In this document: piece after piece, positions 4,637 to 50,907 of the stretch
How the letters are laid out: each line of letters starts with the position of its first letter
Numbering within the stretch: the stretch's first letter is position 1
Source: a virus
Lineage: Duplodnaviria > Caudoviricetes
Reading direction: 5' to 3' (one strand)
DNA length: 53,257 nt
IMG/VR virus record: IMGVR_UViG_3300019887_000002
Coordinates: 1 to 53,257 of that record
Program-made: the position numbers and the translations under genes
The notes under the pieces: model-generated
Seen by the model: only the letters and a program-made list of their open reading frames with translations
Databases searched by the model: none
Told to the model about the DNA's origin: nothing

Positions 4637-4700
4637 TAGTTGCACTTCAGGTCCTGAAACCTAACAGTAATAATCCAATCCTAGACTAAAGGAGGGCTAC

Positions 4701-11276: not shown

Positions 11277-11411
11277 GTGTACGGTGATGCTATAGCTGAA
11301 GGCGACGTACCTGAAGAGGACCTTGCTTCTGACGATGATAAGGTTGTCACAGGTGTCAGCCCGCCCGAGGGACGTGAGGAGGAAGATTGGGAACCAAAGC
11401 CGACCTCATAG
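11277..11411 (+). CDS. small highly acidic protein overlapping the endolysin start (44 aa)
   Basis: GGAGGTG RBS, GTG start; MYGDAIAEGDVPEEDLASDDD...WEPKPTS*. Confidence 0.6.
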   Translation: MYGDAIAEGDVPEEDLASDDDKVVTGVSPPEGREEEDWEPKPTS

Positions 11412-12166
11412 GGGTCCTACAGAGTTTCGTCGGTATCAAAGAGGCTCCTGACGGATCGAACATGACACCAATTGGTGCTGAGTTCGGTTGGAACGGAGTC
11501 GCTTGGTGTTGCGAAACTGTCTCGGTTGCTCTGAAGCGTGCAGGCGTTCCAGGGTTTTGGACTGCGGGAGTACTGGACGCTCGTGAACGTGCCAAGCGAG
11601 GAGAAAATGGAATGCAGTTTGTTCCATTCGCAGGAGCACCTCAGCCTGGAGATGCAATCCTCTTCGACTGGACTGGGGGCAGAGGCACAGGGTCTCCTGA
11701 CAGCTTCCACATCGGTACGATCATCGAGGTTGTAGGCGACACGTTCCATACCATCGAAGGCAACACGTCGAGTGGATGTGCTTGGGTTTGGAGAGATCGT
11801 GCCTTCGTGCAAGGCTTCATCCGCTTCCCATTCGACGCTCCCGTTCCAACACCTACACCACAGGAGGGTGATTTGGGCTGGCCAAGCTTTACTGACCCCA
11901 AGAACGGTAACAAAGTCATCGCGTCTCCAAAGGGTGACTTCTACAACTACAACTCGAAGGGTGCTCCTGGAGGCAACCAGTGGCTTGGTAACCTAAGTCA
12001 GTTCAACGCTGGTGAAGGAACTCCAAATGGACCACTCGTCGCAATCGAGCCGTGGGATGATGGTGGTTCGTTCTCGGGTATCATCGCGTTCTGTGTCGAC
12101 GCGGTCGGCAAGGTACATCCGTACGCTCTTCCGAGCAACGGTGTCTACGGGTACGGGAAGAAGTAA
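11387..12166 (+). CDS. endolysin, CHAP-domain amidase/peptidase
   Basis: AWCC...PGDAILFDW...HIG...TIEGNT CHAP motifs; PT linker; C-terminal putative cell-wall-binding domain. Confidence 0.8.
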   Translation: MGTKADLIGVLQSFVGIKEAPDGSNMTPIGAEFGWNGVAWCCETVSVALKRAGVPGFWTAGVLDARERAKRGENGMQFVPFAGAPQPGDAILFDWTGGRGTGSPDSFHIGTIIEVVGDTFHTIEGNTSSGCAWVWRDRAFVQGFIRFPFDAPVPTPTPQEGDLGWPSFTDPKNGNKVIASPKGDFYNYNSKGAPGGNQWLGNLSQFNAGEGTPNGPLVAIEPWDDGGSFSGIIAFCVDAVGKVHPYALPSNGVYGYGKK

Positions 12167-14602: not shown

Positions 14603-14998
14603 ATGGTTCAGTTTGTAGAAGTTGCTCCTGAGGACATTCCTAACTTACGGGAGACGCACCGGGGACGCGTGAGCTACCCAATCATCAAGGGCTTCATGGA
14701 GACGGGTCTAGCTTGTGTCAAGCTTGACAGGACGGGCATGCAGCAGAACATCCAGTACCTCACGTCGGTGCTCGGTGCCTACATCAGGAATCACAACCTG
14801 CCGATCAAGACGTTCGTTCGACAAGGTGAGATGTACCTGCTCCGGAAAGACCTCAACGCTGATGGTTCGGAGAACCCGAATTGGAAGGAAGAGGAGCAGA
14901 GCAAGAGTGGTGAGATACCTGTTGGAGTAGCTACTCCGATCAACGCTGAGACGGTAACCGAACGGTTCGAAGCTGAGCAGAACCTCACCACGAAGTGA
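14603..14998 (+). CDS. hypothetical protein (possible DNA-binding)
   Basis: AAGGTGG RBS; ORF track. Confidence 0.75.
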   Translation: MVQFVEVAPEDIPNLRETHRGRVSYPIIKGFMETGLACVKLDRTGMQQNIQYLTSVLGAYIRNHNLPIKTFVRQGEMYLLRKDLNADGSENPNWKEEEQSKSGEIPVGVATPINAETVTERFEAEQNLTTK

Positions 14999-15645
14999 AG
15001 AAGGTACTCATTGTTGTAGCCCGACGTTACAATGGCCATGAACTCTGGACCAGTTTAGGAGTCCTCCAGAAGTCAGGTGTCGGGTTCGAAGTGATCTCAT
15101 CAGACAAGTTGATCTGGGATGAGGTGACTGGACAAGCAAACACGATCGAACGGACCATTGATGATGTTGACAACCTCCCTGATGATGTTGACGGGTTGAT
15201 GGTCGTCTCAGGTAACATGAAGGACACGGAAGCGTACTGGACTAACGAACGGGTGCTTCGGTACGTGAGCGAAGCTTACGCAGCTGACCTGCCTATCGCG
15301 GCAATCTGTTGTTCGGTACCGACGATCAGGTCAGCTGCGTACAAGCGTCGAGTGTCCTTCTTCCCTCTGGTCCGCTCACGGATGCTACTAGGTGACGCAG
15401 GAGCGATCCTATCGAACCTGTCGATGGAAGTAGACGGAAGGTTGGTCACAGCTGAGAACCAGATGATGAGCCAGATGTGGGCAACCAACTACGTCGCAGT
15501 CCTTCGTGGTGAGGAGCCAGCACTCACATTGAGAGAGTCAGGGTTCGTTGCAGGACGTGGACGAGAACGCAAGCCCATTCCAGAGGTCGAACGTCTGAAG
15601 GCGTCAAGAAAAACCATCGTTGTCCCACTTGATGAGGGCCTCTAG
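14995..15645 (+). CDS. DJ-1/PfpI (ThiJ) family protein
   Basis: MKKVLIVV...GHE, DGLMVVSG, PIAAICC nucleophile elbow, VDGRLVTA. Confidence 0.85.
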   Translation: MKKVLIVVARRYNGHELWTSLGVLQKSGVGFEVISSDKLIWDEVTGQANTIERTIDDVDNLPDDVDGLMVVSGNMKDTEAYWTNERVLRYVSEAYAADLPIAAICCSVPTIRSAAYKRRVSFFPLVRSRMLLGDAGAILSNLSMEVDGRLVTAENQMMSQMWATNYVAVLRGEEPALTLRESGFVAGRGRERKPIPEVERLKASRKTIVVPLDEGL

Positions 15646-18699: not shown

Positions 18700-20877
18700 G
18701 TGCTGGTACCAAAAGTCGGGCTGTTCTTGAAGTTCGTTCTGGGAGACGCACAGGGAGTCCTGTGCGTCTCCCGACGTCCTGCAGGAACGAAACAGTTTGA
18801 AGAGGAATACTTCAACTACCCGGGAGAGATCAAGGCTACTCTTGAGTGGCTAGCCGCCTCGGAAAGAGGTTACGATCTATACTTCTGCCCAAATTTACTC
18901 GCTGGCAACAAGCGTGACAAGGCTAGTGTCCTTTCATGCGGATGTGCTTGGGCGGATCTCGATTCGTGTAAGCCAGAGAACATGCTAATTCCTCCTACCA
19001 TTGTCGTTGAAACTTCTCCCCAGAGATACCAAGGGTACTGGGTGTTCGATGAAGCTGTCGAACCTGCAGTAGCAGAGGACATCTCCAGACGCATTGCTTA
19101 CTACCATGCAGAACAGGGAGCAGACAAGAGTGGTTGGGATCTATCACAACTGCTTCGGATCCCATACTCGTACAACTACAAGTACGGTAACAACCCAGCA
19201 GCCATTCAGATTAGGAAGGCAACCAACGAGCATTACACTCCCGACTCCTTCTCAGTCTATCCACAGGCCGAGGGGTTTGAGTACACGGAGATTCCGTTTC
19301 CAACTGAATGGCCTCAGGAAGATGCAGATGCAACTCTGCAGAAACATCGTACACACTTTCATCCACGAGTCTGGGACCTATACAATACGGTGCCTGACGA
19401 GCACAAGTGGTCGACAGCACTCTGGCAACTAGAGATGTTGTTGTTCGAAGGTGGAATGGTTCGTGAGGAAGTGTTCATAGTTGCCAAGGCTGCAAAGTGT
19501 AACAAGTACGAACGGGATGGCAGATCAGACAAGCTCCTGTGGAAAGATGTATGTAGGGCGTGGGCAAGGGCAGTTGAGAAGACAAAAGCTATTGCCTTCG
19601 GTCAGTATGATCCGCCTCACGAACAAATGTTAACGGACGGAGAACGAGAATGGGTAACTTCGAACCTGAGCATCGTGGAACGTTACATATCGTGGGCTCG
19701 CCAACTTGGCGACGCTGCATGGCAGTATCATCAGGCAGGTGCTTTCATTACATTGTCCTCGCTATTAGCAGGTTCAGTTCGACTTCCTACATCCTATGGG
19801 ATGATGGTACCGAATTTGTGGTTTATGATTTTAGCGGATACAACTCTCACGCGGAAGACTACGGCGATGGACATCTCCGTCGATTTGTTGACAGAGATCG
19901 ACCCAGATATAGTGCTGGCGACGGATGGGAGTATCGAGGGCTTGATGACGTCATTGTCTATGCGTCCGGGTCAACCATCTTTGTTCTTACGGGATGAGTT
20001 CTCCGGCTTACTATCTGCTATGGAGCACAAGGACTACATGTCAGGTATGGCTGAGATGTTCACTAAGTTGTACGACGGTAAGTTCCAAAAGCGGGTACTC
20101 CGGAAGGAGATCATCGAGGTACGCGACCCCAGATTGATCCTGTTCGCAGGAGGTATCAAGACTCGCGTACAAGACATCTTGACGTACGAACAGGTTGCAT
20201 CCGGGTTCATTCCAAGATTCATCATTGTCAGTGCAGAAGCTGACATCGCTGCACTGAAGCCTCTAGGACCCCCAAGTGAACGATCGAACCTTGAACGTGC
20301 GAAGCTACTCTTTGAACTAACTAAGATCAAGAATCACTACTGCCAGACGACCGAAGTCAAAGTTGGTATGAAGGTCTTCCGTCAACCGAAGCAGTGGGAC
20401 GCACGGCTCACCGAAGAAGCGTGGGCGTTGTACAACAAGTACGAAACAACTACACTTGCAATAGCAAACAGAGCAGGACGTAAAGATGTCTTGACACCTA
20501 CAATGGACAGACTCTGCAAGAGTGGTCTGAAGTGTGCAGTCATCTTGGCTGCTGTCAGACATCTTGGTGACCAGATTGTTGTAGAGGAGCAAGACCTTGT
20601 ACGTGCATTCTACTACGTCGAACAGTGGAGAGGTTTCGCTACTGATTTGATTCAGAACATCGGTAAGTCGATCCAGGAGAGAGGATTGGAACAGATTGAG
20701 AGAGCTATAGTCAGATCACCCGGTGTAATGCGTAGTACATTGATGCAGTACTTCCATCTGACGGCAAGAGATACTGACATGGTACTCCAGACCCTAGAGC
20801 AACGTGGAACTATTTCTCGTGTCAAGAATGGTAGGTCAGAGACTTTGTGGCCAAGCAAACTACAGGAGGTCAAGTGA
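18700..20877 (+). CDS. RepB-type primase fused to DUF3987-like helicase/ATPase domain
   Basis: WADLD, VETSP.RYQGYW, LLRIP primase motifs; C-terminal RKTT, RDEF, SGFIPRF. Confidence 0.82.
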   Translation: MLVPKVGLFLKFVLGDAQGVLCVSRRPAGTKQFEEEYFNYPGEIKATLEWLAASERGYDLYFCPNLLAGNKRDKASVLSCGCAWADLDSCKPENMLIPPTIVVETSPQRYQGYWVFDEAVEPAVAEDISRRIAYYHAEQGADKSGWDLSQLLRIPYSYNYKYGNNPAAIQIRKATNEHYTPDSFSVYPQAEGFEYTEIPFPTEWPQEDADATLQKHRTHFHPRVWDLYNTVPDEHKWSTALWQLEMLLFEGGMVREEVFIVAKAAKCNKYERDGRSDKLLWKDVCRAWARAVEKTKAIAFGQYDPPHEQMLTDGEREWVTSNLSIVERYISWARQLGDAAWQYHQAGAFITLSSLLAGSVRLPTSYGMMVPNLWFMILADTTLTRKTTAMDISVDLLTEIDPDIVLATDGSIEGLMTSLSMRPGQPSLFLRDEFSGLLSAMEHKDYMSGMAEMFTKLYDGKFQKRVLRKEIIEVRDPRLILFAGGIKTRVQDILTYEQVASGFIPRFIIVSAEADIAALKPLGPPSERSNLERAKLLFELTKIKNHYCQTTEVKVGMKVFRQPKQWDARLTEEAWALYNKYETTTLAIANRAGRKDVLTPTMDRLCKSGLKCAVILAAVRHLGDQIVVEEQDLVRAFYYVEQWRGFATDLIQNIGKSIQERGLEQIERAIVRSPGVMRSTLMQYFHLTARDTDMVLQTLEQRGTISRVKNGRSETLWPSKLQEVK

Positions 20878-21635
20878 CACAGACCCAGCGGACGTTCGCT
20901 CACCCTTCCGATCCTAAAGCAGTCGTCCTCCTCAGTGGAGGACTCGACAGTACCGTCCTCGCATACATGATGTCGGAGAAGTACAACTGTCACTTCCTCT
21001 CGTTCAACTACGGACAGCGACACAGCAAGGAAATCCTATACGCTGGGCAGACGGCTCGTCGGTTGGGCTCTCCTCACAACGTCATTGACTTGACGTCGCT
21101 AGGCCTCCTGTTGAAAGGCTCTGCACTGTCTGACCCCAACGTGGCTGTTCCAGAAGGCCACTACTCAGCAGACAACATGGCGATCACGGTTGTGCCCAAC
21201 CGCAATGCAACTATGCTCTCGTGTGCCACTGCTGTTGCCGTTGCAGAGAAAGCTTCCGTCGTCGCTTTCGCACCTCACTTTGGTGACTACCAGCAGTACC
21301 CTGATTGCAGGACTCGATTCGTTGACCGCCTCCAAGAGGCTCTGACGATCGGCAACGAGGGATTCATGCTTGGAGGTTTCCGTATCGAGGCACCCTTCAT
21401 TGCTATGTCAAAGGCGGACATCGTCACAATTGGTGAGAACCTTAAGGTTCCCTTCGCAAGTACCTGGAGTTGCTACAAAGGCGGAAGCGTTCACTGCGGT
21501 CGGTGTGGAACTTGTGTGGAGAGAGCAGAAGCATTCTGGGAAGCGCAAGTTGCAGATCCGACAACGTACGCCGACAACGAGTACTGGAGTCAAGTGACAG
21601 GTAAGTGGCCGATCATTCTTGGAGGATCCAAATGA
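20874..21635 (+). CDS. queC: 7-cyano-7-deazaguanine synthase
   Basis: SGGLDS, YGQRH, VPNRN, YPDCR, SCY...CGRCGTC. Confidence 0.96.
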   Translation: MTQTQRTFAHPSDPKAVVLLSGGLDSTVLAYMMSEKYNCHFLSFNYGQRHSKEILYAGQTARRLGSPHNVIDLTSLGLLLKGSALSDPNVAVPEGHYSADNMAITVVPNRNATMLSCATAVAVAEKASVVAFAPHFGDYQQYPDCRTRFVDRLQEALTIGNEGFMLGGFRIEAPFIAMSKADIVTIGENLKVPFASTWSCYKGGSVHCGRCGTCVERAEAFWEAQVADPTTYADNEYWSQVTGKWPIILGGSK

Positions 21636-22075
21636 CGATTGAAGTCGGTTCCATTCGTGTAATGCATAACGTGGAGATGGCTCACCGTCTCACGAAGACA
21701 CCTGGTAGGTGCCAGAACATCCATGGCCACAGTTGGAAGGTGATCCTCACACTAACTGGGGAGATCGACGAGAAGGGTGTACTAGTCGAGTTCGGTTACC
21801 TCAAGATGGCGTTCCGTGACTTCCTCAACACGAACTTCGATCACCACCTCCTACTCAACTGGACTGATCCAATGTTCAGGAATGTAATGCTAGAAGGTGC
21901 TCTCCTACCAGGTGCCACTCAAATGGAAGGAGAACCTACAACCGAGAACTTCGCCAAGCTCATCTACGACTGGGCTGTACAAGAGTTGATCGGCAAGATC
22001 GGGAACGTATATAGTGCACGAGTTGAAGTCTGGGAGACTGCAACAAACTGTGCTGTGTACCCTGCGGAGGGATGA
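21632..22075 (+). CDS. queD: 6-carboxy-5,6,7,8-tetrahydropterin synthase
   Basis: AHRL...CQNIHGH, DH, PTTEN, VWET. Confidence 0.95.
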   Translation: MTIEVGSIRVMHNVEMAHRLTKTPGRCQNIHGHSWKVILTLTGEIDEKGVLVEFGYLKMAFRDFLNTNFDHHLLLNWTDPMFRNVMLEGALLPGATQMEGEPTTENFAKLIYDWAVQELIGKIGNVYSARVEVWETATNCAVYPAEG

Positions 22076-22076
22076 C

Positions 22077-22313
22077 ATGGCTAGAGTGTACGAGTTGATA
22101 CCAGGAGACAGAGTGAAGGTAGTGAGTATGTCAGGTACCTTCATAGCATCGTGTGACCACCCTCTCTTCGATGGTTTCATGTTGGTCATCTGGAGAATGG
22201 AAGATGGTACGTGGAGTCACGATGCTCTCCTCGCAACACAAGAGGTTGGTGAAGTTGTTCCAAACGAGGATCGGGTTGCAAACCTTCAACAGGCACTACT
22301 GAGGAGAGTTTGA
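22077..22313 (+). CDS. hypothetical protein within the que cluster
   Basis: GGAGG RBS; SH3-like beta pattern. Confidence 0.7.
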   Translation: MARVYELIPGDRVKVVSMSGTFIASCDHPLFDGFMLVIWRMEDGTWSHDALLATQEVGEVVPNEDRVANLQQALLRRV

Positions 22314-23087
22314 ATGGAAGGCAATCGAGCATTCAAGAGAGGACACCTTCGTGTAAGTGGAGATGGCATCTTCTACACACTTCAAGGGGAAGGGATCACA
22401 CAAGGTATTCCAGCTATCTTCCTCCGTCTACACGAGTGCAACCTGAAGTGCAAGTGGGGCGAAACGATTTGTGACGCCTCGTACACGTGGGACAAGTCTG
22501 ACAACAGGTACTGGCAGGAGTCTCTAGACGTTCCTATGGAGTCTCTTACCCAAGACTTGTGGAAAGCAATGCAAGGTCACAACTGCTACAGAATCGTGAT
22601 CACAGGTGGCGAACCAATGATGCAGCGAGGAGCACTGGACACTCTGCTTCAAAATCTCTTCAGCCGGTTACCGACACCCTTTGGGAAGATTTGGGTAGAG
22701 TTTGAAACCAACGGGACGATTGCTCCCACCAAATTCATGGTAGAGAGCGCTAACAGGTACTTGGTTCAATTCAACGTCTCTCCAAAGTTGGCAACGTCAG
22801 GTAACGGTTCCTGGCGGGCACTCAAACCTGAAGTGTTGAAGGAGTACGCAGAAACAAACTCCTGGTTCAAGTTCGTGGTGGACGATGTCTTCGACGAGGA
22901 TGAGATCGTGGACATCGTGGAACAGGTACACTTGAATCCTATGCGTGTCATCCTCATGCCTCAGGGCGTTGATCCGATGACTCTGTGGAAGAACCAGCAG
23001 TTGTGTGCAGAGATCGCTATGAAGCGTGGATGGCGAATGACAACTCGTCTACAGATCGCTCTCTGGGGGAATACTCGTGGCACCTAA
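22314..23087 (+). CDS. queE: 7-carboxy-7-deazaguanine synthase (radical SAM)
   Basis: FYTLQGEG, CNLKC...CD, ITGGEP, ETNG, NVSPKL. Confidence 0.95.
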   Translation: MEGNRAFKRGHLRVSGDGIFYTLQGEGITQGIPAIFLRLHECNLKCKWGETICDASYTWDKSDNRYWQESLDVPMESLTQDLWKAMQGHNCYRIVITGGEPMMQRGALDTLLQNLFSRLPTPFGKIWVEFETNGTIAPTKFMVESANRYLVQFNVSPKLATSGNGSWRALKPEVLKEYAETNSWFKFVVDDVFDEDEIVDIVEQVHLNPMRVILMPQGVDPMTLWKNQQLCAEIAMKRGWRMTTRLQIALWGNTRGT

Positions 23088-23253
23088 CCTTGGGCTAGCA
23101 ACAACTCGCGAACTCCTAACAGAACTTGCTGTGCGTATGGAAGTTACGCAGAACAGTACTAACGGTCGAGCTCTCGGACGACTGTGCCGAAATGCTCTGG
23201 AGCATCTCGCAAAAAACGTACTGGACTATCGGACAGTTAGTTCGGAGGGTTAG
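23077..23253 (+). CDS. hypothetical protein (58 aa)
   Basis: GGGGG RBS, GTG start; MAPNLGLATTRELL...LDYRTV. Confidence 0.6.
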   Translation: MAPNLGLATTRELLTELAVRMEVTQNSTNGRALGRLCRNALEHLAKNVLDYRTVSSEG

Positions 23254-23823
23254 ATGGCAGAGTCATACCAACGTAGATTGACAGTACCTATGGCCGCAGA
23301 ACTCCTCAGGCGCTTATTGCCTGATGAGAACTGGGAAGACGAACATCTAAGGAGGACACCAGAACGCTTCGTGCAGATGTTGCATGAGCTTACAGACAGG
23401 ACACCGCATGAGTTCGACTTCACGATCTTCCCGAACGACGGGATTGACGAGATGGTCGTCGTTCAAGACATACCGTTCCGCTCACTATGTGCCCATCACT
23501 TGTTGCCATTCATCGGTGTGGCCCACATCGCATACATCCCAGACAAGAAGGTCGCGGGCCTGTCGAAGCTCCCACGCACTGTGCAGTACTGGTCGGCTGG
23601 GTTGTGGAGCCAAGAACGGCTGACAGAGAAGATCACCAGGTACCTAGAGGAGATGTTGGAACCGGTAGGCGTCGCGGTCGTCATGAAAGCGGAACACATG
23701 TGTATGTCACTCAGGGGTGCACAGGCACATGGCACTAAGACAACGACATCTAAAATGCTTGGAGTGTTCCTCGATCCATCTCGAGGTGCTCGACAGGAGT
23801 TCCTCAATCTGATTTCACATTAG
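23254..23823 (+). CDS. folE: GTP cyclohydrolase I
   Basis: TPER, SLCAHHLLPF, GLSK, QERLT, HMCM. Confidence 0.96.
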   Translation: MAESYQRRLTVPMAAELLRRLLPDENWEDEHLRRTPERFVQMLHELTDRTPHEFDFTIFPNDGIDEMVVVQDIPFRSLCAHHLLPFIGVAHIAYIPDKKVAGLSKLPRTVQYWSAGLWSQERLTEKITRYLEEMLEPVGVAVVMKAEHMCMSLRGAQAHGTKTTTSKMLGVFLDPSRGARQEFLNLISH

Positions 23824-23830
23824 GACCCTC

Positions 23831-23860
23831 TTGATTTGGGACTAACTCCAGATATATAAT
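23831..23860 (+). promoter_or_regulatory. promoter TTGATT-N18-TATAAT
   Basis: Promoter family; heads the hydrolase-DpdA-polymerase unit. Confidence 0.8.
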
Positions 23861-23880
23861 TAGAACATAGGAGGGAAGCT

Positions 23881-24216
23881 GTGAGGAAAGCGTTGACAAT
23901 GTTGCAAGATGACACTGAGTGGAATGACAGTTTCATTCAGGAGATGGCTAACCGTATGGCTGTCGGCCGTCATAGGTACGGAAGTATCTACGGTCCTGAG
24001 CACGTAGGTCGTGACATGATCCGAGCTATGCGCAGCCGGATTACTCACTACGAGGAAACAGGCAACACAGAAGTGCTCCGGGATATTGCTAACTTCGCGA
24101 TGATCGAAGCATCAGTTCCTCATCATCCGAAAGCACACTTCAAACCACTCGAGCATGAAGATACGCCCCCTGTGTATCGTGACGGCAAGCCCTGGACTTT
24201 GGAGAGCGAACGATGA
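23881..24216 (+). CDS. putative all-alpha (MazG-like) nucleotide pyrophosphohydrolase
   Basis: G..RYG...GNTEVLRDIANFAMIE pattern resembles phage dATP/dGTP diphosphohydrolase-like proteins. Confidence 0.5.
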   Translation: MRKALTMLQDDTEWNDSFIQEMANRMAVGRHRYGSIYGPEHVGRDMIRAMRSRITHYEETGNTEVLRDIANFAMIEASVPHHPKAHFKPLEHEDTPPVYRDGKPWTLESER

Positions 24217-24959
24217 AGCTCGCAATCATCAGTCCTAACAGTCTGCTGGACAGGTATAGTCAGACGGACTACCACCTGATCCTTCCTGACATGCTCAAGG
24301 ACCCGGAGTACTACAGGTTCTACCACTCAGTTGCTAGGGGTTGGAAGGTACTAGACAACGGTGCACACGAAGAAGGAACGCGTTCACCTAACGAACTGTT
24401 CAGGATCGCTGAGATACTCCAAGTGGATGAGATCGTTGTACCTGATGTCATCGGTGACAGAGGTACCACTCTTGATATGGCAGCTAGCTTTGAGCCGCAT
24501 GCTTACGAGGCAAATCCACGGTATCAATACATGGGAGTCGTTCAAGGTTCATCTGCTGGTGAGGCGTGGGAGTGTCTCAGAGAGCTGACGGACTACTTCC
24601 CATGGATTAAGTCCATTGGTATTCCCCAACACCTCTGTAGGTTCGACCAACACATCCGTGTCGAGATGGCTGAAACAATCGATCAGTGGATGGGGCATCA
24701 GGTACACCTACTCGGCAACAATAGTAGGTGGCCTAGAGAGGTTAAGCACTTGTCGGATCTCAAATGCGTCGTTGGACATGACACGACGTACCCTGTCAAG
24801 ATGGGTCTGAGAGGCTACTACATCAGTGATAGGGAAGTACCAAACGTCCCAAGAGACCCCGACTACTTCGAGTTCTACCGAGATGTTGTTGAATTGCAAG
24901 ACTACGTCATCAAGGAGAACATTCGTGTCTACAAGTCCTGGTGCGATGGAACAACGTAG
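24213..24959 (+). CDS. dpdA: DpdA-like (TGT-fold) DNA guanine transglycosylase
   Basis: TIM-barrel TGT motifs VLDNGA, PDV, VVQG, IGIP, VHLLG, HDTT; adjacent to preQ0 genes. Confidence 0.75.
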   Translation: MKLAIISPNSLLDRYSQTDYHLILPDMLKDPEYYRFYHSVARGWKVLDNGAHEEGTRSPNELFRIAEILQVDEIVVPDVIGDRGTTLDMAASFEPHAYEANPRYQYMGVVQGSSAGEAWECLRELTDYFPWIKSIGIPQHLCRFDQHIRVEMAETIDQWMGHQVHLLGNNSRWPREVKHLSDLKCVVGHDTTYPVKMGLRGYYISDREVPNVPRDPDYFEFYRDVVELQDYVIKENIRVYKSWCDGTT

Positions 24960-27267
24960 ACATCCGCTCGCACTATGTGAGTCCTGTCCACTCAACACGG
25001 AGGAGTCTGTTTATGTCCCTTCAGACGGGCCCGACAGAGCCGAACTCGTCATCATCGGAGAAGCTCCCGGACGAGATGAAGCAAGGAGAGGACGACCCTT
25101 CACTGGACAGTCGGGCAAACTCCTTGATACAGTTCTTGCGCACAACAAACTGGAACGTTCCAGAATATTTGTCACGAATACGGTTCTCTGCAGAGACAAA
25201 GAGAATCGTACTCCAACAGCCACGGAGATCGGATGCTGCCTTCCCCGACTCATCGCCGAGGTCAAGAGCAGAAGCCCAAGCACTATACTTGCACTTGGTA
25301 ACTCAGCTGCGAAGACGATCCTCCGAACCACTGACGGAGTTACCAAGCTCCGAGTTGGACAAGGACACGAGTCCCCACTCTTTCCCGGAGTAAAGGTCAT
25401 AGCAACATTCCACCCAGCAGCAACAATGCGTCAGCCCGGAGCCTTCCCATCGATGGTAACTGACTTCGCGAAGGTCAGAGTCAAGGGAGACGTACGATGG
25501 ATCGATCCTGAGATCAGCATCGTGAACAATCCTGACAACGCCAATGTAGTACTTGACGCACTAGCAACCAAGCCCCGTATCACTATCGATATCGAAACAG
25601 GCAAAGAGAAGGACGAGGACTTCGACAGACCTGAGAACCTTCTCTGTGTCGGTTTCAGTTATCGTCCAGGGGCTGTAGTTGTCATCGGAGAGAGAGCCTT
25701 ACAGCATCCAGGAGTGAAGCAGCATCTAGTTGACATGCTCAACAGGCATCCTCACATTGGAGCACAGAATGGTAAGTCAGACCTCGGATGGCTTCGAGCA
25801 GGTACTCTTGCCTTCGACACAATGCTTGCATCGTATGCATGTGATGAGAGGAAGGGTATTCATAGCCTGGAATATCAAGGTACAGAACACCTCGGTGCTC
25901 CGAATTGGAAGGCAGAGTTCAAACGGAAACTTCGTACCAAGACCGACTACGGCAGTTGTTCTCGAGACGATCTCTACATCTACAACGGACAGGATTGTGT
26001 TGGAACTTGGTTGCTCGAAGACTATTGGGAGGCCCGACTTAGAGCTGAGGGTCTTACAGGACTTCATGAACACCTGGTGAATGTAAGCAACACACTCATG
26101 CCTGTGGAGCAAGAAGGTGTGAAGCTCGATCTGGCGTACAACCTTAGGTTACAGGCTGAGTACGATGAACTACTTGCCAGACTGATGATGAGCCTTAACA
26201 GGTGGATCGACAACCCAAGGTCGTGGCAACAGATCAAGAGAGCCCTCCTGGAACTACACGTACAGGTAGACAACACTCAAGCGGAAGAGATCCAAGCAGC
26301 CCTCGAGATGGCTATAGGACCTGAAGGTAACCAACTCGATCCTGTCGACAGAGCACAAGTCATCGAACTATGTACAGACCTACTAGAGTACAAGAAACAA
26401 TTCAAACAGGAGTCGACATATGTCAGAGGAATCCGGGAACGACTCGATCGCAACGGACGCATCTACGCCTCCTTCCTCATCCACGGCACAACCCATGGAC
26501 GACTTTCTTCTCGCAATCCGAACCTTCAGAACATTACTCGAGGGGACCGCATTCGAGGTCAGTTCGTCCCTGAAGAGGGTAACCTTTTCGTTCAGGCTGA
26601 CTATCGGACCATCGAGCTCCGAACACTAGCAGTTGAGTCAGGAGATGCTTATCTGTTCAGTGTACTGTCGGACCTTGAACGAGACATTCACAATGAGACA
26701 GGTGCTAGGTTCTATCACGACTTCTGGGATGTCACACCAGCAGCACGGAAGGAACGTCGCATCAGAGCCAAGGCTGTTGTGTTCGGACTCCCATACGGAC
26801 GTACTGCGTTCAGTGTAGCAGAAGAGTACGGACTAGCACCTCAAGTTGCAGAAGCTTACTACCGAGAGTTCTTCGGACTTATCCCTGGAGTAGTTGAATT
26901 CCAAAAGAGAGTCAAGCTCGACGTGTTGAGTGGCAAGGATCTCATAACACCTTTCGGAAGGCATCATCGGGTTCCTCTCATCACACCACAGAACCGCAAG
27001 GATGTAATCAAAGAGGCGTACTCGTTCTACCCTCAAAGCATTGCGAACGACATCAACCTGCATGCCATGATCAGATTGGTCAATGCAGGTGTGCACGTTC
27101 GCATTCCAGTACACGACTCATTGCTGGCAGAGTTCAGAGCAGAGGACGCTAAAGAAGGTGCACAGTTTATGAAGGAGACAATGGAACAGACAGCAGCAGA
27201 CGTGTACAACAAAGAGATGCCATTTCCTGTAGATGTAGAAATTGGTCCGAACTGGGGTGCAGTATGA
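24946..27267 (+). CDS. polA: DNA polymerase family A with N-terminal family-4 uracil-DNA glycosylase domain and 3'-5' exonuclease
   Basis: UDG: CESCPL, GEAPG, PFTG, FHPA; exo DIET; Pol: GRLSSRNPNLQN, DYRTIELR, KAVVFGLPYG, VHDS. Confidence 0.93.
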   Translation: MEQRRHPLALCESCPLNTEESVYVPSDGPDRAELVIIGEAPGRDEARRGRPFTGQSGKLLDTVLAHNKLERSRIFVTNTVLCRDKENRTPTATEIGCCLPRLIAEVKSRSPSTILALGNSAAKTILRTTDGVTKLRVGQGHESPLFPGVKVIATFHPAATMRQPGAFPSMVTDFAKVRVKGDVRWIDPEISIVNNPDNANVVLDALATKPRITIDIETGKEKDEDFDRPENLLCVGFSYRPGAVVVIGERALQHPGVKQHLVDMLNRHPHIGAQNGKSDLGWLRAGTLAFDTMLASYACDERKGIHSLEYQGTEHLGAPNWKAEFKRKLRTKTDYGSCSRDDLYIYNGQDCVGTWLLEDYWEARLRAEGLTGLHEHLVNVSNTLMPVEQEGVKLDLAYNLRLQAEYDELLARLMMSLNRWIDNPRSWQQIKRALLELHVQVDNTQAEEIQAALEMAIGPEGNQLDPVDRAQVIELCTDLLEYKKQFKQESTYVRGIRERLDRNGRIYASFLIHGTTHGRLSSRNPNLQNITRGDRIRGQFVPEEGNLFVQADYRTIELRTLAVESGDAYLFSVLSDLERDIHNETGARFYHDFWDVTPAARKERRIRAKAVVFGLPYGRTAFSVAEEYGLAPQVAEAYYREFFGLIPGVVEFQKRVKLDVLSGKDLITPFGRHHRVPLITPQNRKDVIKEAYSFYPQSIANDINLHAMIRLVNAGVHVRIPVHDSLLAEFRAEDAKEGAQFMKETMEQTAADVYNKEMPFPVDVEIGPNWGAV

Positions 27268-27422: not shown

Positions 27423-27640
27423 AGTGTTCGAAGTGTAACAACCAGGCACGACGAAACAGCGAGTTCTGTTTCGATTGTGGACCGAAGAAGATAGCAACCA
27501 AGAGACACCGTAACCCGAGAAGGTACAGGCCTATTGAACAGGATAGGAGGCGGGCACCAGAGACACCTGTACCTATGATCGATCCACTTGTACCAAAGAT
27601 CATCGACAAACAGTTCCTACTAGGAAAGAGGCCGATATGA
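27419..27640 (+). CDS. basic zinc-ribbon protein
   Basis: CSKC...CFDC. Confidence 0.65.
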   Translation: MKCSKCNNQARRNSEFCFDCGPKKIATKRHRNPRRYRPIEQDRRRAPETPVPMIDPLVPKIIDKQFLLGKRPI

Positions 27641-28194
27641 GAATACTCAGGACACTTGTAGCTGGCACGATCATACTTGTTGGAGTTGCTACTGTTTCAA
27701 CATTAAAGATGGGCATCGATACATCACGCAACGTACCACCATCAGCCATTGCAATGATAGGTCCTGTTGCTCCTGGACCAACCGACAACCGAATCACACA
27801 AGCAAACATCCACGAGACCATCTGTACAAGTGGATGGACCAAAAAGGTTCGTCCAAACTCTATGTACACAGGTTTCGTCAAGAAACTAGAAATGGGCAAC
27901 GGAGGCGATGTTCCGTCTCCTGCAGCAGCCGGACGGATGTACCACGTAGTTGGCACTCATCTCAACCAACCTCTGAGCCTGTACGAACTGGATCACAACG
28001 TTCCACTCGAGTTGGGAGGTAACCCTGAGGACCCGATCAATCTCAAGCTCCAGATTTGGGATGGCCCTGATGGTGCTCACCTAAAGGACCATGCAGAGAA
28101 CAAAGTGCACGCTCTCGTGTGTAGCGGAGCAATGAGACTTGTAGATGGTCAGCAAGTGTTCCTGTCAGATAATTGGAAGCCGTACGCGAACTAA
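27637..28194 (+). CDS. secreted/membrane-anchored HNH-like nuclease-fold protein
   Basis: N-terminal hydrophobic signal; YELDHNVPLELGG...INL motif; paired Cys. Confidence 0.7.
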   Translation: MRILRTLVAGTIILVGVATVSTLKMGIDTSRNVPPSAIAMIGPVAPGPTDNRITQANIHETICTSGWTKKVRPNSMYTGFVKKLEMGNGGDVPSPAAAGRMYHVVGTHLNQPLSLYELDHNVPLELGGNPEDPINLKLQIWDGPDGAHLKDHAENKVHALVCSGAMRLVDGQQVFLSDNWKPYAN

Positions 28195-28792: not shown

Positions 28793-29287
28793 ATGCAAGT
28801 TGTAGTCGCCTTTGACCCAGGAGGCACAACCGGAATGACAGTTGCTCGGAAGAAAGATCCAGGACGTAGGGTCTCTGGAGAATGGACTTGGGAGTTCTAC
28901 GAACTAGGTCCATCACAGCATCACGCAATACTCTGGCGTGATCTCAACCATCTCAACGTTCTGATCCCAAAGAGCGTCGACCTAACAGTAGTGTGTGAGT
29001 CCTTCGACCATAGAGCCAACGAAGCAGCTGAACTGATCTCGTGCGAGTACATCGGCATCATCGTCCTGTGGTGTACTGTTAAGGAAGTGCGCCTAGTAAT
29101 GCAGACACCTTCCGAGGCAAAGAACTTCTGGACAGATAACAAACTCAAGCACCTGGGTCTCTACCACCCAACTAAAGGCGACCACTCGAACGATGCTACC
29201 AGACATGCACTCCGCTTTATCACACAGTGGAGAGACAAGACGTTCATCTACCAACTGAAAGGAATCAACGGTGCCTCGGCTGTTTGA
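28793..29287 (+). CDS. RuvC-like Holliday junction resolvase
   Basis: AFDPGGTTG, VCESF, HSNDA.RH. Confidence 0.85.
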   Translation: MQVVVAFDPGGTTGMTVARKKDPGRRVSGEWTWEFYELGPSQHHAILWRDLNHLNVLIPKSVDLTVVCESFDHRANEAAELISCEYIGIIVLWCTVKEVRLVMQTPSEAKNFWTDNKLKHLGLYHPTKGDHSNDATRHALRFITQWRDKTFIYQLKGINGASAV

Positions 29288-30752
29288 AACAGGTGTCGGA
29301 CTAACTACCCCTCTCGATCAACTACAGGATGCAGCTCACAAGGCAGCACGCATCTGGAGGAACAACGCACGAGTTGACCAACGGATGCCTCCTGGAGACT
29401 GGAGAGTTTGGCTCATCGTCGGTGACAGAGGTTCTGGGAAGACATATGCTGAGACACTAGCAGCCTTGGCCGCTCTTGACGGGCCTAAGAGGAACATTGG
29501 TTTCGTCGCTCCATCCTTGAGTGCTGCCAAGATGGTTAACTTGGACGGAGAGTCAGGCATCTTGGCAGCAGTCGGTGGTGAAGAGAACGTTGGTAAGGTC
29601 ATCAGAGGACAGAATGATGTCTACTGCATCTTCAACAATGGCAGTCAGATTGAGTTCCGCTCCTCTGCCAGTCCTGAGAGCATACGAGGTAGGAACTGGG
29701 ACCTCTGTATCTGGGATGAAGTCATTGCAGCGAAGCACCCACTTGCAACCTGGCAACAGATCCAAGCTGCTACACGCAAAGGTCGCGCCCGTGTGGTGAT
29801 TGGTACTTCATGGGACGCTGATCACCCAGACAAAGGCAAGCCTCGGTACGAGGAAGCCAAAGCAGTTCTCTCCAGCATCCTGAAGCGAGAAGGTAGTGGA
29901 GTTATTGTCACGTTCATGAAGTCGTCCGACAACACTGCACTCTCCAAGGAGTGGCTAAAGGAGAACATTGGACACACGGACCTCGACAACCTTCTCAACG
30001 TCGACCCAAGCGCCGGCTTCTTCCGCTCCCCTATGTTTCAATACCACAGGGCGATGGAGGATAGGATTGAACTTGGAGACAAGAAGGTTAGGTACGGAAG
30101 GCTCTATCGCTTCGTTGTCGTACATCCTGTGATGCAGGACGACTCTCCGTGTATCCTCCTACATATCGGGACGTTCAAGAGTCACGGGAAGAGGTACATA
30201 GTCATCTTGGATGAGATCCGAGAATACATGCCTGCTGCGATGGCAGTCGAACGTGGACGAGAGGTTATGAAGACCCTCAAAGCCAACTACGTCCTGTACG
30301 ATGCAGCACACTACTTCGGACCTCCAGAGACGGATCCACGCTTCAGGTTGATCAAGGTACCACCTCCCCCTCATACAGCCTTCCCGGTACAGAAGGCCCT
30401 AGCCGAAGGTAGGTTGTGGTTACAACCAGAGATGAAAGAGGACCTGCTCGCATACGTACCTGAAGGTATAGAGTCTAAGAGGGCTGACAGAGTGATCGCC
30501 TTGTCTCTTGCAACAACTGAGGTTGACGCACTCGACTATAGGAAGACACCTCCAAGAGTACGGCCCGTGTGGTTCAGGATCTTGAAGTGGCTAGGGGTAG
30601 CGTACTTGACTTACAACTTCTTCATCTTCTCGTTCATCCTGATGCTCCTCCTACTACCGTTCGACTTCATTGCAATACTCCTACTCATTAGGATGAGGAA
30701 GAGGAAGAAGGCAGAAGTTGAGAAGCGGATGAAGACGATGGGATTGATCTAA
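29271..30752 (+). CDS. second terminase-large-subunit homologue with degenerate nuclease and C-terminal membrane anchor
   Basis: Q motif/PPGDWRVWL, Walker A GDRGSGKT, PESIRG, Walker B CIWDE; ~35-aa hydrophobic C-terminal segment followed by RMRKRKK. Confidence 0.8.
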   Translation: MPRLFETGVGLTTPLDQLQDAAHKAARIWRNNARVDQRMPPGDWRVWLIVGDRGSGKTYAETLAALAALDGPKRNIGFVAPSLSAAKMVNLDGESGILAAVGGEENVGKVIRGQNDVYCIFNNGSQIEFRSSASPESIRGRNWDLCIWDEVIAAKHPLATWQQIQAATRKGRARVVIGTSWDADHPDKGKPRYEEAKAVLSSILKREGSGVIVTFMKSSDNTALSKEWLKENIGHTDLDNLLNVDPSAGFFRSPMFQYHRAMEDRIELGDKKVRYGRLYRFVVVHPVMQDDSPCILLHIGTFKSHGKRYIVILDEIREYMPAAMAVERGREVMKTLKANYVLYDAAHYFGPPETDPRFRLIKVPPPPHTAFPVQKALAEGRLWLQPEMKEDLLAYVPEGIESKRADRVIALSLATTEVDALDYRKTPPRVRPVWFRILKWLGVAYLTYNFFIFSFILMLLLLPFDFIAILLLIRMRKRKKAEVEKRMKTMGLI

Positions 30753-46503: not shown

Positions 46504-46937
46504 TAGCTCGCCCTATAGAATCCTGCAGCAGCGAACTGGACGGTTAGGTCACTCGCGTCTGTGGTAACAACGAAGTCATGAGCAGTAAGGGGAATTCGAG
46601 TGGTATCTGCTGCAGCCTCCTCATAGAACACGATCAGCTTCGCTGTTGTGTTGTTCGTTGCTCCTCCAGCAACCGTCCACGTCTGATTTGGTACAGACAC
46701 ATCAACGCGGTCGTTTGTATTGTCAACTGTCACGGTGCCAGTAAGACCTGTTTTCCGAGCATAGTTGGTGAAGTCCGCTTCAGTTGAACCCGACAGTACA
46801 GCAGTGAGTGTTGCACGATCACGCATGAGGGCATCAGACTCAACTGTCTTGAGGATCATCACCCCTAAGTTGGTAGCCGTGTCACGCACCTTCTCAGCTG
46901 ACGCACCCTTTGCAATGTTGAACACAAAATCTGCCAT
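46503..46937 (-). CDS. putative virion structural protein
   Basis: MADFVFNIAKG...NYARK...IPL..HDF; follows portal. Confidence 0.65.
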   Translation of the reverse strand: MADFVFNIAKGASAEKVRDTATNLGVMILKTVESDALMRDRATLTAVLSGSTEADFTNYARKTGLTGTVTVDNTNDRVDVSVPNQTWTVAGGATNNTTAKLIVFYEEAAADTTRIPLTAHDFVVTTDASDLTVQFAAAGFYRAS

Positions 46938-48439
46938 TATCCCTCCTGACTAGGATTCGACTTGCCCGAATTATCTGCACCAGCATTCTTACCAGGTAGA
47001 CCTTTGTTCATGTTGCCTGCCTGAGATTGTCTTGGCAACTCAGGAGCAGGAGCACCAGGCAACTGAGGAGCAGTGACCATCCGTTTGGTAGCAACGTCCT
47101 TACGAGGCAAGTCCATCTCTTCACGTGACCATGTCTCAAGAGGATCATCAGGCTCTATAATACCTGCACCGATCAAGTTCCTGAGTGCGAAACTGATCGT
47201 TCTCCAGTCGATAGTATCGCCAAGTCGGCGGCACTTCAGCTTCGGGAAGTCGATAATGTTCGCCCCAAAGTTGTACTGCACCAACTGAGGAATACCATAC
47301 GAGTTGAAAACATCAGCAACCTGATCAGCAACGAACCTAACTGACTTCAGGAAGAGTTCCTGATCTGCTGTAACAGCAGTTCCTCCTCGTGTCATGTCAA
47401 GGAAGGGAGCCAAGATGTTTTTGGCGATCTCCATGTCATGGTGTTCGATGGATCGCATGATGTCAACAGGTTGTCCCTCCATCTTCAACATGATGATATC
47501 CCAATTAGGAGGGAGAATGATATGGGCCTTCTCATTCGTACGAAGGTTACGGCCCATCTCATCAGCAAGTTTCCTGTCTGCTTCCGAGAAGTTCGGTGGA
47601 AGGTGGATAACAGGAATCCCAATGCCATGACGTTCCTTTTGGATAGCATCGATCTTGTACAAGTTATCCTTGTAGAACCAGTGCTTGTACGCCGTACGAA
47701 GGACAGACGTACCCTGAATGTTCCCTGACTCTTTCTCGAACGTGAACACCAACAACTTTGAGATGTCAATATCAACAGGTTGATACAGTTGTGGACCGTA
47801 AATCCACAACGTTTGTGGTCCTCCATGCAGATCGAAGTCCCACCTGTACACATCGAGAGGATGTCTCGGAGCCAACTTGCCCCAAACATACTTGCCGTCT
47901 CCAGCAGGACTGGGCACCCAGACCTTCTCGAACATGTAGTACCCGAAGTCCAACATGAGGAGAGCTTCCCGAAGTTGCTGTGGCCAAGAGACCGTCTGCC
48001 ACTTCGTCAGACAGTTCCAACAGAACTCTGCAATCTTCTTGTCACGAAGTTTGTCAGAAGCTGGGTCCATATACCAACGTGCAGCAACAACAGGAGTCTT
48101 GACAAGGTTTAGAGTACCCCGAATCTGCCCGTCACTCTTACGCATCTGCTCGTAGACACGCAGACCTCGGATACCACGAAGTTCAGGGTTGTAATCCTCT
48201 CGGATCAAACGGCTATAGGTCGTCGTACCAGAAACAGCAGCAGCTCCGATTTCACCTGTTGGTGGTTTCTCTACATACTTCTGAGTCACAATCAAAGCAC
48301 CGCCCGATACCCCAATCGGGTCGTAGTCTGCAAACAACTGTTGGAAGTCTGTCGTCTCCAGAGTCCGCACAGCCCCATTGCTCTCGACCACAGGCCCCGA
48401 TGATTCAGGTTCGTCGAACTCATTCCAAAGTTCTGGCAT
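46937..48439 (-). CDS. portal protein (Mu gp29/DUF935-like)
   Basis: D.QI.G.L..VK, GY..FEKVW, G.SVLR.AY..W..K, ER.G.GIP. Confidence 0.9.
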   Translation of the reverse strand: MPELWNEFDEPESSGPVVESNGAVRTLETTDFQQLFADYDPIGVSGGALIVTQKYVEKPPTGEIGAAAVSGTTTYSRLIREDYNPELRGIRGLRVYEQMRKSDGQIRGTLNLVKTPVVAARWYMDPASDKLRDKKIAEFCWNCLTKWQTVSWPQQLREALLMLDFGYYMFEKVWVPSPAGDGKYVWGKLAPRHPLDVYRWDFDLHGGPQTLWIYGPQLYQPVDIDISKLLVFTFEKESGNIQGTSVLRTAYKHWFYKDNLYKIDAIQKERHGIGIPVIHLPPNFSEADRKLADEMGRNLRTNEKAHIILPPNWDIIMLKMEGQPVDIMRSIEHHDMEIAKNILAPFLDMTRGGTAVTADQELFLKSVRFVADQVADVFNSYGIPQLVQYNFGANIIDFPKLKCRRLGDTIDWRTISFALRNLIGAGIIEPDDPLETWSREEMDLPRKDVATKRMVTAPQLPGAPAPELPRQSQAGNMNKGLPGKNAGADNSGKSNPSQEG

Positions 48440-49870: not shown

Positions 49871-50527
49871 TCAGTTAGGAGGACAAATAATAGGACATTG
49901 AACGTTGAGTAAAGGTGTAGGAGACTGTGAAGGTTGTGGCGTCACAGTAGATGTCACAGTAGGTGTGACTGTTGGAGTGACTGAAGACGTAGGTATAGGT
50001 CTAGACCTGGGAGTAATTGTCACCGTTGGTCCTGGAACCGGGAATGGCGAAGGAATGATTACCAAGACACCGTCCTTACCATCTTTTCCGTTCGTCCCGT
50101 CCTTCCCATCTTTTCCATCTTTTCCGTCCTTCCCAGGTTTGCCCCCGGGTCCGGGGACTGTACTCGCAGCCCCAGCAGATCCAGTCTCACCTTTCAATCC
50201 TCGTGCAATACCTACAGCCCGGTGAAGTTCATTGAGAATACGAGGGCGGTCCTCTGGTGGGGCGTTCTCGAGTTGGCTTTCAAGTTGACTGATTCGAATA
50301 AGAGCGCTCTTGTACCGTTCTCCTTGCTGACCGTAACGGTACACCACGAAGACAAGGGCTACTGACAGCAGGACCATTATTATCGTACAGGCGTAGACCG
50401 GCCACCCTGAAGGGAACCTTCCCATCGGAGACATATGGGTAAGTTTTTCTTCCAGGCTCTTAGCCTCGGTCCTCAAGTCAGCCTGATGGTGCAGCACACT
50501 CTCCGGAGCTGTCGATGGAATACTCAT
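49871..50527 (-). CDS. membrane-anchored collagen-like protein
   Basis: TM helix, coiled coil, GKD repeats, Pro/Thr-rich tail, terminal CPIIC. Confidence 0.75.
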   Translation of the reverse strand: MSIPSTAPESVLHHQADLRTEAKSLEEKLTHMSPMGRFPSGWPVYACTIIMVLLSVALVFVVYRYGQQGERYKSALIRISQLESQLENAPPEDRPRILNELHRAVGIARGLKGETGSAGAASTVPGPGGKPGKDGKDGKDGKDGTNGKDGKDGVLVIIPSPFPVPGPTVTITPRSRPIPTSSVTPTVTPTVTSTVTPQPSQSPTPLLNVQCPIICPPN

Positions 50528-50907
50528 GCCACCGCCTTCACCTGTTTTTCAAAGTCCTCACGTATCCCCCGCAACTTCGTTTCAAGTTCCTGCACTACTG
50601 CGTGCAATCGTGCGATCTCAGCACGGTCAATTTCCCCAGTAGCTAGAGCTACGATAAGATCCTGCTTAGCTTTGACGAGTTCCACCTCGCCTACTCGCAG
50701 AGCGTCAATCACTCCTTGCATCCGAAGCACCTCGGCATTAAGTCCGAAATTGAGATGCTCGAACAGACTTACTGCGTCGCTGACTACGGTCGTAGCCAAC
50801 TTGGCAGAGGTAGACCGGTGACTAACGAGCACGGCTTGTACGAGTCCAATCGCTGCTACTGAGATTGCAATAATCCCACCCACTAAGAGCGGAGTTGGAA
50901 TGTTCAT
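50524..50907 (-). CDS. membrane protein with coiled coil
   Basis: N-terminal TM; heptads. Confidence 0.7.
   Translation of the reverse strand: MNIPTPLLVGGIIAISVAAIGLVQAVLVSHRSTSAKLATTVVSDAVSLFEHLNFGLNAEVLRMQGVIDALRVGEVELVKAKQDLIVALATGEIDRAEIARLHAVVQELETKLRGIREDFEKQVKAVA

Follow-up and report, generated by a model that had tools for sequence, protein, structure and literature searches.

The virus record IMGVR_UViG_3300019887_000002 (Duplodnaviria; Caudoviricetes) encodes, besides the large terminase subunit (TerL) beside its portal gene, a second terminase-like protein, which is called P0001 here (positions 29271–30752). The window, that is, the whole stretch of DNA that was analyzed, was one whole IMG/VR virus record of 53,257 nucleotides (nt); it is linear, and its estimated completeness is 83%. 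P0001, the product of an accessory gene, has the full fold of a large terminase and falls into the Terminase_6 "GRGxGKT" subfamily. Judging from the alignment with its relatives, P0001 has probably retained nucleotide binding and has very likely lost nuclease activity, with two acidic metal ligands and the conserved arginine of the nuclease site gone. The protein ended in a hydrophobic segment and a basic tail. A role as a membrane-tethered, non-cutting terminase mimic in phage–phage or phage–host conflict is proposed tentatively, with chances that fall short of even.

Terminase fold of P0001

P0001 matched Pfam Terminase_6N (PF03237) with E=3.8e-9 and 37 bits (cut-off 22), and it matched phrog_2 of PHROG with E=1.6e-13. 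A profile built from 68 full-length relatives scored P0001 at 165 bits in a single alignment over residues 19–430. A phmmer search of 1.8 billion representatives with P0001 gave 1505 matches at E<=1e-3. Nearly all of these covered residues 25–180 only; the ordinary 425-amino-acid (aa) terminase P0040 was aligned to residues 26–421. Searches of NCBIfam and of the PDB sequences with P0001 gave no match. The "GRGxGKT ... DE ... TTT" subfamily, including "phage terminase large subunit-like" proteins, is presumably similar to the terminases of gene transfer agents.

The structure of P0001 was predicted by AlphaFold2 with a 70-row alignment, and the mean predicted local distance difference test (pLDDT) score was 84.4. 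The model showed a low-confidence linker at residues 237–248 and one long helix at residues 433–489. Prediction from the single sequence gave a pLDDT of 41 and was informative for the tail helix alone. When the model was compared with PDB by Foldseek, full-length terminases were on top (D6E TerL, E=1e-13), and further matches were the PhiV-1 terminase of the Avs3 complex (8dgc_E), T4 gp17, Sf6 gp2, and, lower down, HK97. The alignments to full-length TerLs spanned 440–480 columns. Among the top 50 Foldseek matches in BFVD, many rows were nameless, and the named matches were all terminase, intein, or HNH-type except one. The AlphaFold2 model leaned on the terminase alignment; the single-sequence model of ESM Atlas was used as independent support for the C-terminal half. 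In that model, residues 255–432 had template modeling scores of 0.69–0.76 to Terminase_6C clusters over 159–169 residues. An earlier note on this DNA had called the protein TerL-like. The Pfam, Foldseek, and ESM Atlas results agreed with this for both halves, the top structural matches were terminases, and all motif strings quoted in that note were located in the P0001 translation.

ATPase motifs and nuclease site

The motif counts were taken over the 68 full-length relatives. Q37 of the Q motif was retained in P0001 (68/68 relatives). In the P-loop, R53, G54, G56, and K57 (each 68/68) and T58 (63/68) were retained; the same was true of R139 (64/68), G140 (67/68), and the Walker B acids D149 (65/68) and E150 (68/68). 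The ATP-binding motifs that had been read earlier from the sequence were therefore kept. P0001 retained 23 of 26 highly conserved ATPase columns, with G52D, W147I, and T180S as the changed ones. R59, an arginine in 55 of the 68 relatives, was also replaced (R59Y). The coupling motif TTT, with threonine in 54, 58, and 66 of the 68 relatives, was GTS in P0001 and was followed by a 6-residue insertion. G52D, the one departure within the P-loop, may leave nucleotide binding intact: Rab and Rho GTPases normally have an aspartate as the second residue of this loop. The coupling of the ATPase to translocation appears doubtful.

The nuclease site was changed more strongly. D285H (30123–30125), D409I, and R369T were found at positions where D, D, and R occurred in 65, 55, and 64 of the 68 relatives, respectively. 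E344D was a conservative change (E in 63/68), and D406 was retained (D in 47/68). Two of six conserved nuclease columns were retained. In P0003, the sole close relative of P0001, the corresponding residues were H285, T409, and G406. The claim that the usual catalytic acids are replaced thus held for D285, with histidine also in P0003, and for D409; it did not hold for E344, with its conservative change, or for D406, which is kept. In the ATPase half, P0001 was 33% identical to its relatives, which were 41% identical among themselves; in the nuclease half, the two values were 16% and 32%. A ratio of nuclease to ATPase identity as low as that of P0001 occurred in 7 of the 68 relatives.

Hydrophobic tail and the relative P0003

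P0003 is a 237-aa protein on a 1001-nt JGI contig. It was 73% identical to P0001, was aligned to residues 255–493, and had an unbroken frame over its 237 residues. The word-based protein search with the whole protein, with residues 255–432 plus the tail, and with shorter lengths returned P0001, P0003, and the ordinary TerL P0002 only. The scan of 1.8 billion representatives gave no close match besides P0003, and pattern scans of viral contigs, metagenome contigs (with P0003), and genome contigs gave no further relative. Searches by tblastn with the tail against phages and with the C-terminal half against plasmids gave nothing. The search for homologs with the same tail, which the earlier note had suggested, therefore yielded a carrier of the tail, and only this one. 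The first residue of P0003 aligned to M255, just past the low-confidence interdomain linker of P0001, and no ribosome site was found in the window before the ATG of M255. P0003 may be a contig-end fragment or a stand-alone protein of the nuclease-like domain plus tail.

The mean Kyte–Doolittle hydropathy over 19 residues peaked at 2.92 within residues 440–477 and was below 1.4 elsewhere in P0001. The flank on the N-terminal side of the hydrophobic run (residues 420–439) held six K/R. Between P0001 and P0003, the hydrophobic run was identical at 28 and similar at 32 of 34 positions. The tail as a whole was identical at 47 and similar at 57 of 61 positions with no gaps, and the domain was identical at 127 and similar at 146 of 175 positions with four gap columns. 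By this comparison, the tail is conserved at least as well as the domain. P0003 retained the hydrophobic run, P-F-D, and the basic tail, and ended at the same residue as P0001. The C-terminal segment of about 35 hydrophobic residues with the basic RMRKRKK behind it, as first described, was thus confirmed. Among 152 compared proteins, a hydrophobic segment of such a kind was found in P0001, P0003, and P0076 only. P0076, a terminase match of 380 aa, turned hydrophobic after "VVAIDPAV" and then became rich in Ser, Pro, and Arg; it looked frame-shifted.

An artifact of frameshift or assembly, which would have explained the tail of P0001, was ruled out by the tail of P0003 and by indel-free independent soil contigs across the junction of domain and tail. 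Logan contigs from four soil metagenome runs of three studies showed no indel over the P0001 region. Positions 30312–30712 were covered with 0 differences by a contig from a sample and study other than the best-covered one, and a 5-kb Logan contig ran from 30499 on into the downstream genes. A variant strain, 98% identical, had three changes in the open reading frame (ORF) of P0001: two were synonymous, and one was I212V.

Accessory status and the phage's own TerL

The 493 codons of P0001 were uninterrupted. An AGGA-type ribosome site was found 8–12 nt before its GTG, and its start shared 17 nt with the upstream RuvC-like gene. P0001 is translationally coupled to this gene and closes the replication arm, where that arm meets the structural one. 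The GC content and codon choice of P0001 were like those of the rest of the genome; therefore, its acquisition was not recent. A mobile cassette was considered and rejected, with no flanking repeats and no GC shift.

The plus-strand arm ended with the RuvC-like gene in most related phages. In the related record L002, whose family-A DNA polymerase (PolA) was 40% identical, the order was PolA, small ORFs, an HNH gene (E=2e-20), a RuvC-like gene (E=2e-15), and then the convergent tail-fiber arm; the slot after the RuvC-like gene held neither a TerL-like gene nor a NUMOD3-repeat gene. L002 is 57% complete and matched neither TerL, so that it is informative for the syntenic slot only. A further 80 loci, with 3999 ORFs of at least 60 aa, were fetched with an alignment of the two RuvC-like proteins. 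A TerL-like ORF within 7 kb was found at 0/80 of these syntenic loci, 65 of which continued downstream for 1600 nt or more past the RuvC-like gene. The TerL profile gave a single match over the 3999 ORFs, a P-loop ORF of 112 aa (E=8e-4), and phmmer searches of the same ORFs with P0001, P0003, and the phage's own TerL (P0153) gave nothing at E<=1e-3. Two Terminase_6N matches occurred in no member of a set of 27 long related records, of which 13 were 90% complete or better: eight had one and 19 had none, and since the Pfam model found a TerL in just these 8/27, the lack of a second copy is limited by sensitivity. Direct protein search of the 27 records gave two weak matches, which were to the single TerLs of two records.

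The slot after the RuvC-like gene was variable in the relatives. Of 10 ORFs searched from this slot, three encoded cell-wall hydrolases, two SNF2 helicases, and one an Exo_endo_phos protein (a nuclease of a phosphatase family), and four were of unknown function. The endolysin-type enzymes in this slot of loci L004–L083 carried Amidase_2, Peptidase_M15_4 with PG_binding_1, and Glyco_hydro_25. Many small hydrophobic ORFs also occurred in the slot; of 10 that were searched, none was a named holin, three matched PHROGs of unknown function, and seven had no match. A holin fusion as the source of the P0001 tail was rejected: P0001 has 493 aa, and the tail matched neither the 3999 ORFs of the 80 related loci nor phage records. 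The candidate lysis enzymes of the phage, with CHAP and transglycosylase-like domains, sit away from P0001 (Table 1).

The canonical TerL beside the portal gene, which the earlier note had located, was confirmed and lies on the minus strand. Over 90% of its length it shared 39% identity with the Wollypog TerL (an Arthrobacter phage), and its nuclease motifs appear intact by reading of the sequence. A six-frame Pfam search of the whole record found Terminase_6N at exactly two places, P0001 and the own TerL. BLASTP between the two proteins aligned 51 residues only (E=0.002), and the profile of the 68 P0001 relatives gave the own TerL 12 bits, compared with 165 bits for P0001. Therefore, the extra gene belongs to another TerL subfamily, and a recent duplication of the own TerL was ruled out. 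P0001 lies away from portal and small-subunit (TerS) genes, and the packaging position is filled by the own TerL. The earlier description of P0001 as repurposed fits its different subfamily and its absence at the same position in related phages.

The Walker B region of the own TerL (P0153 residues ~133–140) appears, by reading of the sequence, to be V-I-V-A-E; the residue before the Glu, usually an acidic one, is Ala here. Directly upstream of the own TerL gene, at 49871–51149 on the minus strand, three ORFs encode proteins with hydrophobic segments: one of 218 aa with collagen repeats (transmembrane-like at 40–67), one of 127 aa, and one of 81 aa. No TerS was recognized among these ORFs by Pfam and PHROG. 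In Caulobacter phage RW (GenBank MK929790.1), positions 2087–4889 hold two coding sequences annotated "large terminase subunit", of 222 and 480 aa, with a gene for a SAM-dependent methyltransferase between them; this pair looks more like one TerL that has been split or interrupted than like two copies.

Comparison with known systems

P0001 shared with the Terminase_6N/6C TerLs the two-domain fold, the motif order, the Q motif, the Lys and Thr of the P-loop, the conserved Arg, and the Walker B DE. It differed from them by the replaced nuclease ligands, the GTS, and a C-terminal extension of 60 residues with a hydrophobic helix. Unlike usual TerLs, it has no adjoining portal or TerS gene and comes in addition to an intact TerL of the same phage. 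P0001 is thus a member of the TerL superfamily by fold and ATPase motifs, and it fails the functional definition on nuclease ligands, genomic position, and, given the predicted anchor, solubility.

FtsK/SpoIIIE and type IV coupling proteins combine a P-loop DNA-motor ATPase with N-terminal multi-span anchors, and their motor is of the RecA/FtsK-type hexameric kind. P0001 shares a P-loop motor ATPase and a predicted membrane segment with such pumps; its ATPase is of the terminase type and its hydrophobic stretch is a single C-terminal one. It is not a member of this class of pumps. Satellites of the SaPI/PICI type (Staphylococcus aureus pathogenicity islands and phage-inducible chromosomal islands) interfere with helper packaging by small TerS-binding or alternative TerS proteins, which are not known to be membrane-bound. 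The action proposed for P0001 would follow the same logic of engaging the terminase components of a rival, but with a TerL paralog that is predicted to be membrane-bound.

T4 vs.8 and Ksap1/2 occur as extra proteins in restricted phage lineages; their fold resembles that of the terminase ATPase and they have Walker A/B motifs, and an anti-defense role was suggested for them by the authors in the main-text parts of PMC13601566. P0001 resembles them as an extra terminase-ATPase-like phage protein and joins this recently noticed group. As far as the descriptions in these parts of PMC13601566 allow comparison, T4 vs.8 and Ksap1/2 are ATPase-like only, have no nuclease-domain contact, and are not mentioned to have a membrane segment, whereas P0001 has a predicted one. 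The "terminase-like protein" of Pham3880 in cluster C1 mycobacteriophages is a second terminase-like ATPase gene beside TerL (PMC5050341, in part). By the description in that part of PMC5050341, it differs from P0001 in belonging to another family, in occurring in large myoviruses, and in its inteins, and neither a membrane tail nor a dead nuclease is described there. With vs.8 and Pham3880 on record, the statement that TerL is normally single-copy was too strong. No description of a membrane-anchored or nuclease-dead extra TerL, nor of a full-length one with both features, was found in the literature searched. The "second terL" in PMC8626947 denotes a tree, and the "two large terminase genes" in PMC10773633 denote a split gene.

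Possible functions of P0001

As a terminase mimic, P0001 would sit on the cytoplasmic side of the membrane and still bind ATP. It would probably also bind DNA or a partner of terminase (TerS or portal, for example), and it would be unable to cut DNA, so that packaging would be neither started nor finished. The first choice for its action is a trap: P0001 would sequester the complex with which co-infecting phages of this TerL type initiate packaging. The phage's own motor would be spared from poisoning because P0001 is so unlike the own TerL. Within the conflict role, this trap is ranked first, above a decoy for host sensors, because of the same unlikeness and because, in the main-text parts of PMC13601566, accessory TerL-ATPase-like proteins activate Avs2 and do not block it, and SeAvs3 is described as reading active-site residues and the nuclease domain in native form. 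A more elaborate form is rather unlikely: the tethered TerL might act as a weapon that captures the TerS–DNA complex or portal of rivals, or forms rings on them so that the helices with the buried Asp cluster and breach the membrane. Superinfection exclusion or abortive infection by such a system, carried by a virus, would constitute a new class.

Several points weigh against the conflict role. As a gene in a variable junction, P0001 may simply be carried along as a neutral passenger. The glycine that is changed in G52D occurred in 68/68 relatives; with this change, the GTS in place of TTT, and the 6-residue insertion, the ATPase may not drive translocation. The homology of the nuclease domain was weak by sequence alone: Pfam Terminase_6C gave no match to P0001, and hhalign of P0001 plus P0003 against the C-terminal halves of the relatives gave P=0.001 and a probability of 22%, with three motifs in the expected order. 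Two members of the family were found, and the N-terminal half was seen in one genome only. The membrane anchor is predicted from hydropathy and a helix, and the earlier claim of a membrane-anchored protein is weakened to that extent; nine K/R within the 20 residues behind the hydrophobic stretch speak against simple C-tail insertion, since a tail that is translocated would not usually be so basic. The basic tail may fit insertion as a hairpin or at the membrane interface, both ends staying cytoplasmic, better than a classic tail anchor.

A function in the phage's own DNA metabolism is ranked second and is unlikely. P0001 would then be a membrane tether or platform for replicating or concatemeric DNA or for procapsid portals, perhaps with the RuvC-like resolvase. 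Its place as the last replication-arm gene overlapping the RuvC-like gene, the retained ATP-binding motifs, and the long residence indicated by GC and codon use are consistent with this. However, at the 80 related loci and in L002 the gene was absent and the RuvC-like gene stood alone, so P0001 is not core machinery, and its different subfamily makes docking on the own portal or TerS less likely. It is quite unlikely that P0001 is what is left of an acquired terminase gene, decaying and without function, with a frame that runs by chance into a hydrophobic stretch. The lost nuclease ligands, a nuclease half about twice as diverged as the ATPase half, the extreme rarity of the family (two sequences found), and the absence from relatives would suit a remnant, but the gene has 493 intact codons, retained nearly all conserved ATPase columns (23/26), and has a ribosome site and translational coupling. 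Moreover, P0003 shows mostly conservative changes and no frame break, the tail included, and the single-nucleotide polymorphisms of the variant strain were two synonymous and one conservative (n=3).

Very unlikely is a decoy or sponge that binds terminase sensors of the host (Avs1-3, Upx) at the membrane and thereby keeps them from assembling into an active oligomer. Such sensors read the full TerL fold with its ATP site, and Avs2 contacts the terminase ATPase and its ATP (PMC13601566, main-text parts); a terminase chain from an Avs3 complex was among the fold matches of P0001, which is an accessory gene in a variable slot. By the same parts of PMC13601566, however, T4 vs.8 and Ksap1/2 activate Avs2 and do not inhibit it, and SeAvs3 reads active-site residues and the native nuclease domain, a site that is altered in P0001. 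An extra TerL ahead of the late genes would also alert the host sooner, and PADLOC showed no Avs-related or anti-defense match. The least probable explanation is a membrane DNA translocase on a terminase ATPase, analogous to FtsK/SpoIIIE, that pulls in the phage's own genome or moves DNA at the membrane. The Walker A Lys/Thr, the Walker B DE, and the conserved Arg are retained together with a hydrophobic anchor, which speaks for a translocase; against this stand the altered coupling motif with its insertion, a single C-terminal helix that forms no channel, and the lack of conservation in relatives. The gene also lies about 29 kb into the record and would be expressed only once most of the genome is inside the cell.

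Membership in the MADS system was rejected. P0001 had a weak PADLOC match to mad8 (E=1.1e-5, 23 bits, residues 45–333), no other mad genes were nearby, and the match was attributed to general P-loop likeness.

Terminases are regarded as soluble, essential enzymes with packaging as their single purpose, and their genes serve as hallmarks by which phages are counted and classified. A conserved extra copy with a nucleotide site and a hydrophobic segment, and without the nuclease ligands, suggests that the terminase fold can be recruited to another job. If P0001 does act in phage–phage exclusion or in evasion of terminase-sensing immunity, the mechanism would be new. Virus counts and phylogenies based on terL call for caution, because one genome can hold two terL-like genes of unrelated lineages. 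The general weight of the case is limited by its rarity, with two sequences in the collections searched.

Neighboring genes and other features of the genome

The coordinates of the features are listed in Table 1. The NUMOD3-repeat gene is convergent with P0001 and overlaps it by 4 nt at the P0001 stop. Its 209-aa product consists almost wholly of NUMOD3 repeats, which are DNA-binding, and no nuclease domain was recognized in it by Pfam and PHROG.

Table 1. Features of P0001 and of other genes in the window (residue numbers refer to P0001; a dash in the strand column means the minus strand).
Feature	Residues	Positions	Strand	Remarks
TerL-like gene P0001		29271–30752	+	493 aa; GTG start; stop codon 30750–30752
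ATPase domain	~19–236	29325–29978	+	Pfam, motif counts, model
Q region VDQRMPPGDWRVWLI	35–49
Walker A GDRGSGKT	51–58	29421–29444	+
PESIRG	135–140
Walker B LCIWDE	145–150	29703–29720	+
GTS (degenerate coupling motif)	178–180	29802–29810	+
RNase-H-like nuclease-fold domain	255–432	30033–30566	+	metal ligands replaced in the alignment
VVVHP	282–286
ADRVIA	405–410
Hydrophobic segment	440–473	30588–30689	+	34 residues, no K/R, one buried Asp (D465) after P463
Basic C-terminal tail	474–493	30690–30749	+	9 K/R, 2 D/E; P0003 14/20 identical, 18/20 similar
RMRKRKK	474–480
RuvC-like (Holliday-junction-resolvase-like) gene		28793–29287	+	phrog_1981, E=7.7e-22; phrog_1770, E=0.0032; L002 homolog, E=2e-15
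NUMOD3-repeat protein, 209 aa		30749–31378	–	9 Pfam repeats; ten 51-nt DNA repeats
Own packaging TerL, P0153		48439–49860	–	phrog_2, its residues 15–437, E=1.4e-35
Mu-type portal gene		46937–48439	–	adjoins own TerL
7-Deazaguanine (preQ0) gene set		20847–24959 and 14995–15645	+	domain matches
QueC		20847–21635	+
QueD-like		21605–22075	+
Radical-SAM/4Fe-4S protein		22314–23087	+
GTP cyclohydrolase		23254–23823	+
Family-A DNA polymerase		24826–27267	+	DNA_pol_A, E=9.4e-56; N-terminal uracil-DNA-glycosylase-superfamily domain, UDG, E=5.5e-30
Transglycosylase-like (Rpf-type) domain		8289–8828	+	E=3.7e-4, below Pfam cut-off
CHAP domain		11387–12166	+	E=4e-6

The phage probably modifies its DNA, as far as can be read from its genes. 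A DJ-1/PfpI-family protein is encoded further upstream of the preQ0 genes. A 248-aa ORF just before PolA had a positional counterpart in L002 and may be a candidate DNA transglycosylase. The PolA homolog of L002 had the same build of UDG and polymerase domains. A 185-aa ORF at 27637–28194 on the plus strand had hydrophobic N-terminal residues 1–27 and, by eye, a His-Me/HNH-like "DH..P...GG"; it gave no match in Pfam, PHROG, PADLOC, or NCBIfam. No tRNA genes were found in the window. The nearest relatives of the own TerL were from Arthrobacter and Microbacterium phages; together with the Rpf-type and CHAP domains, this hints at a Gram-positive, perhaps actinobacterial, soil bacterium as the host.

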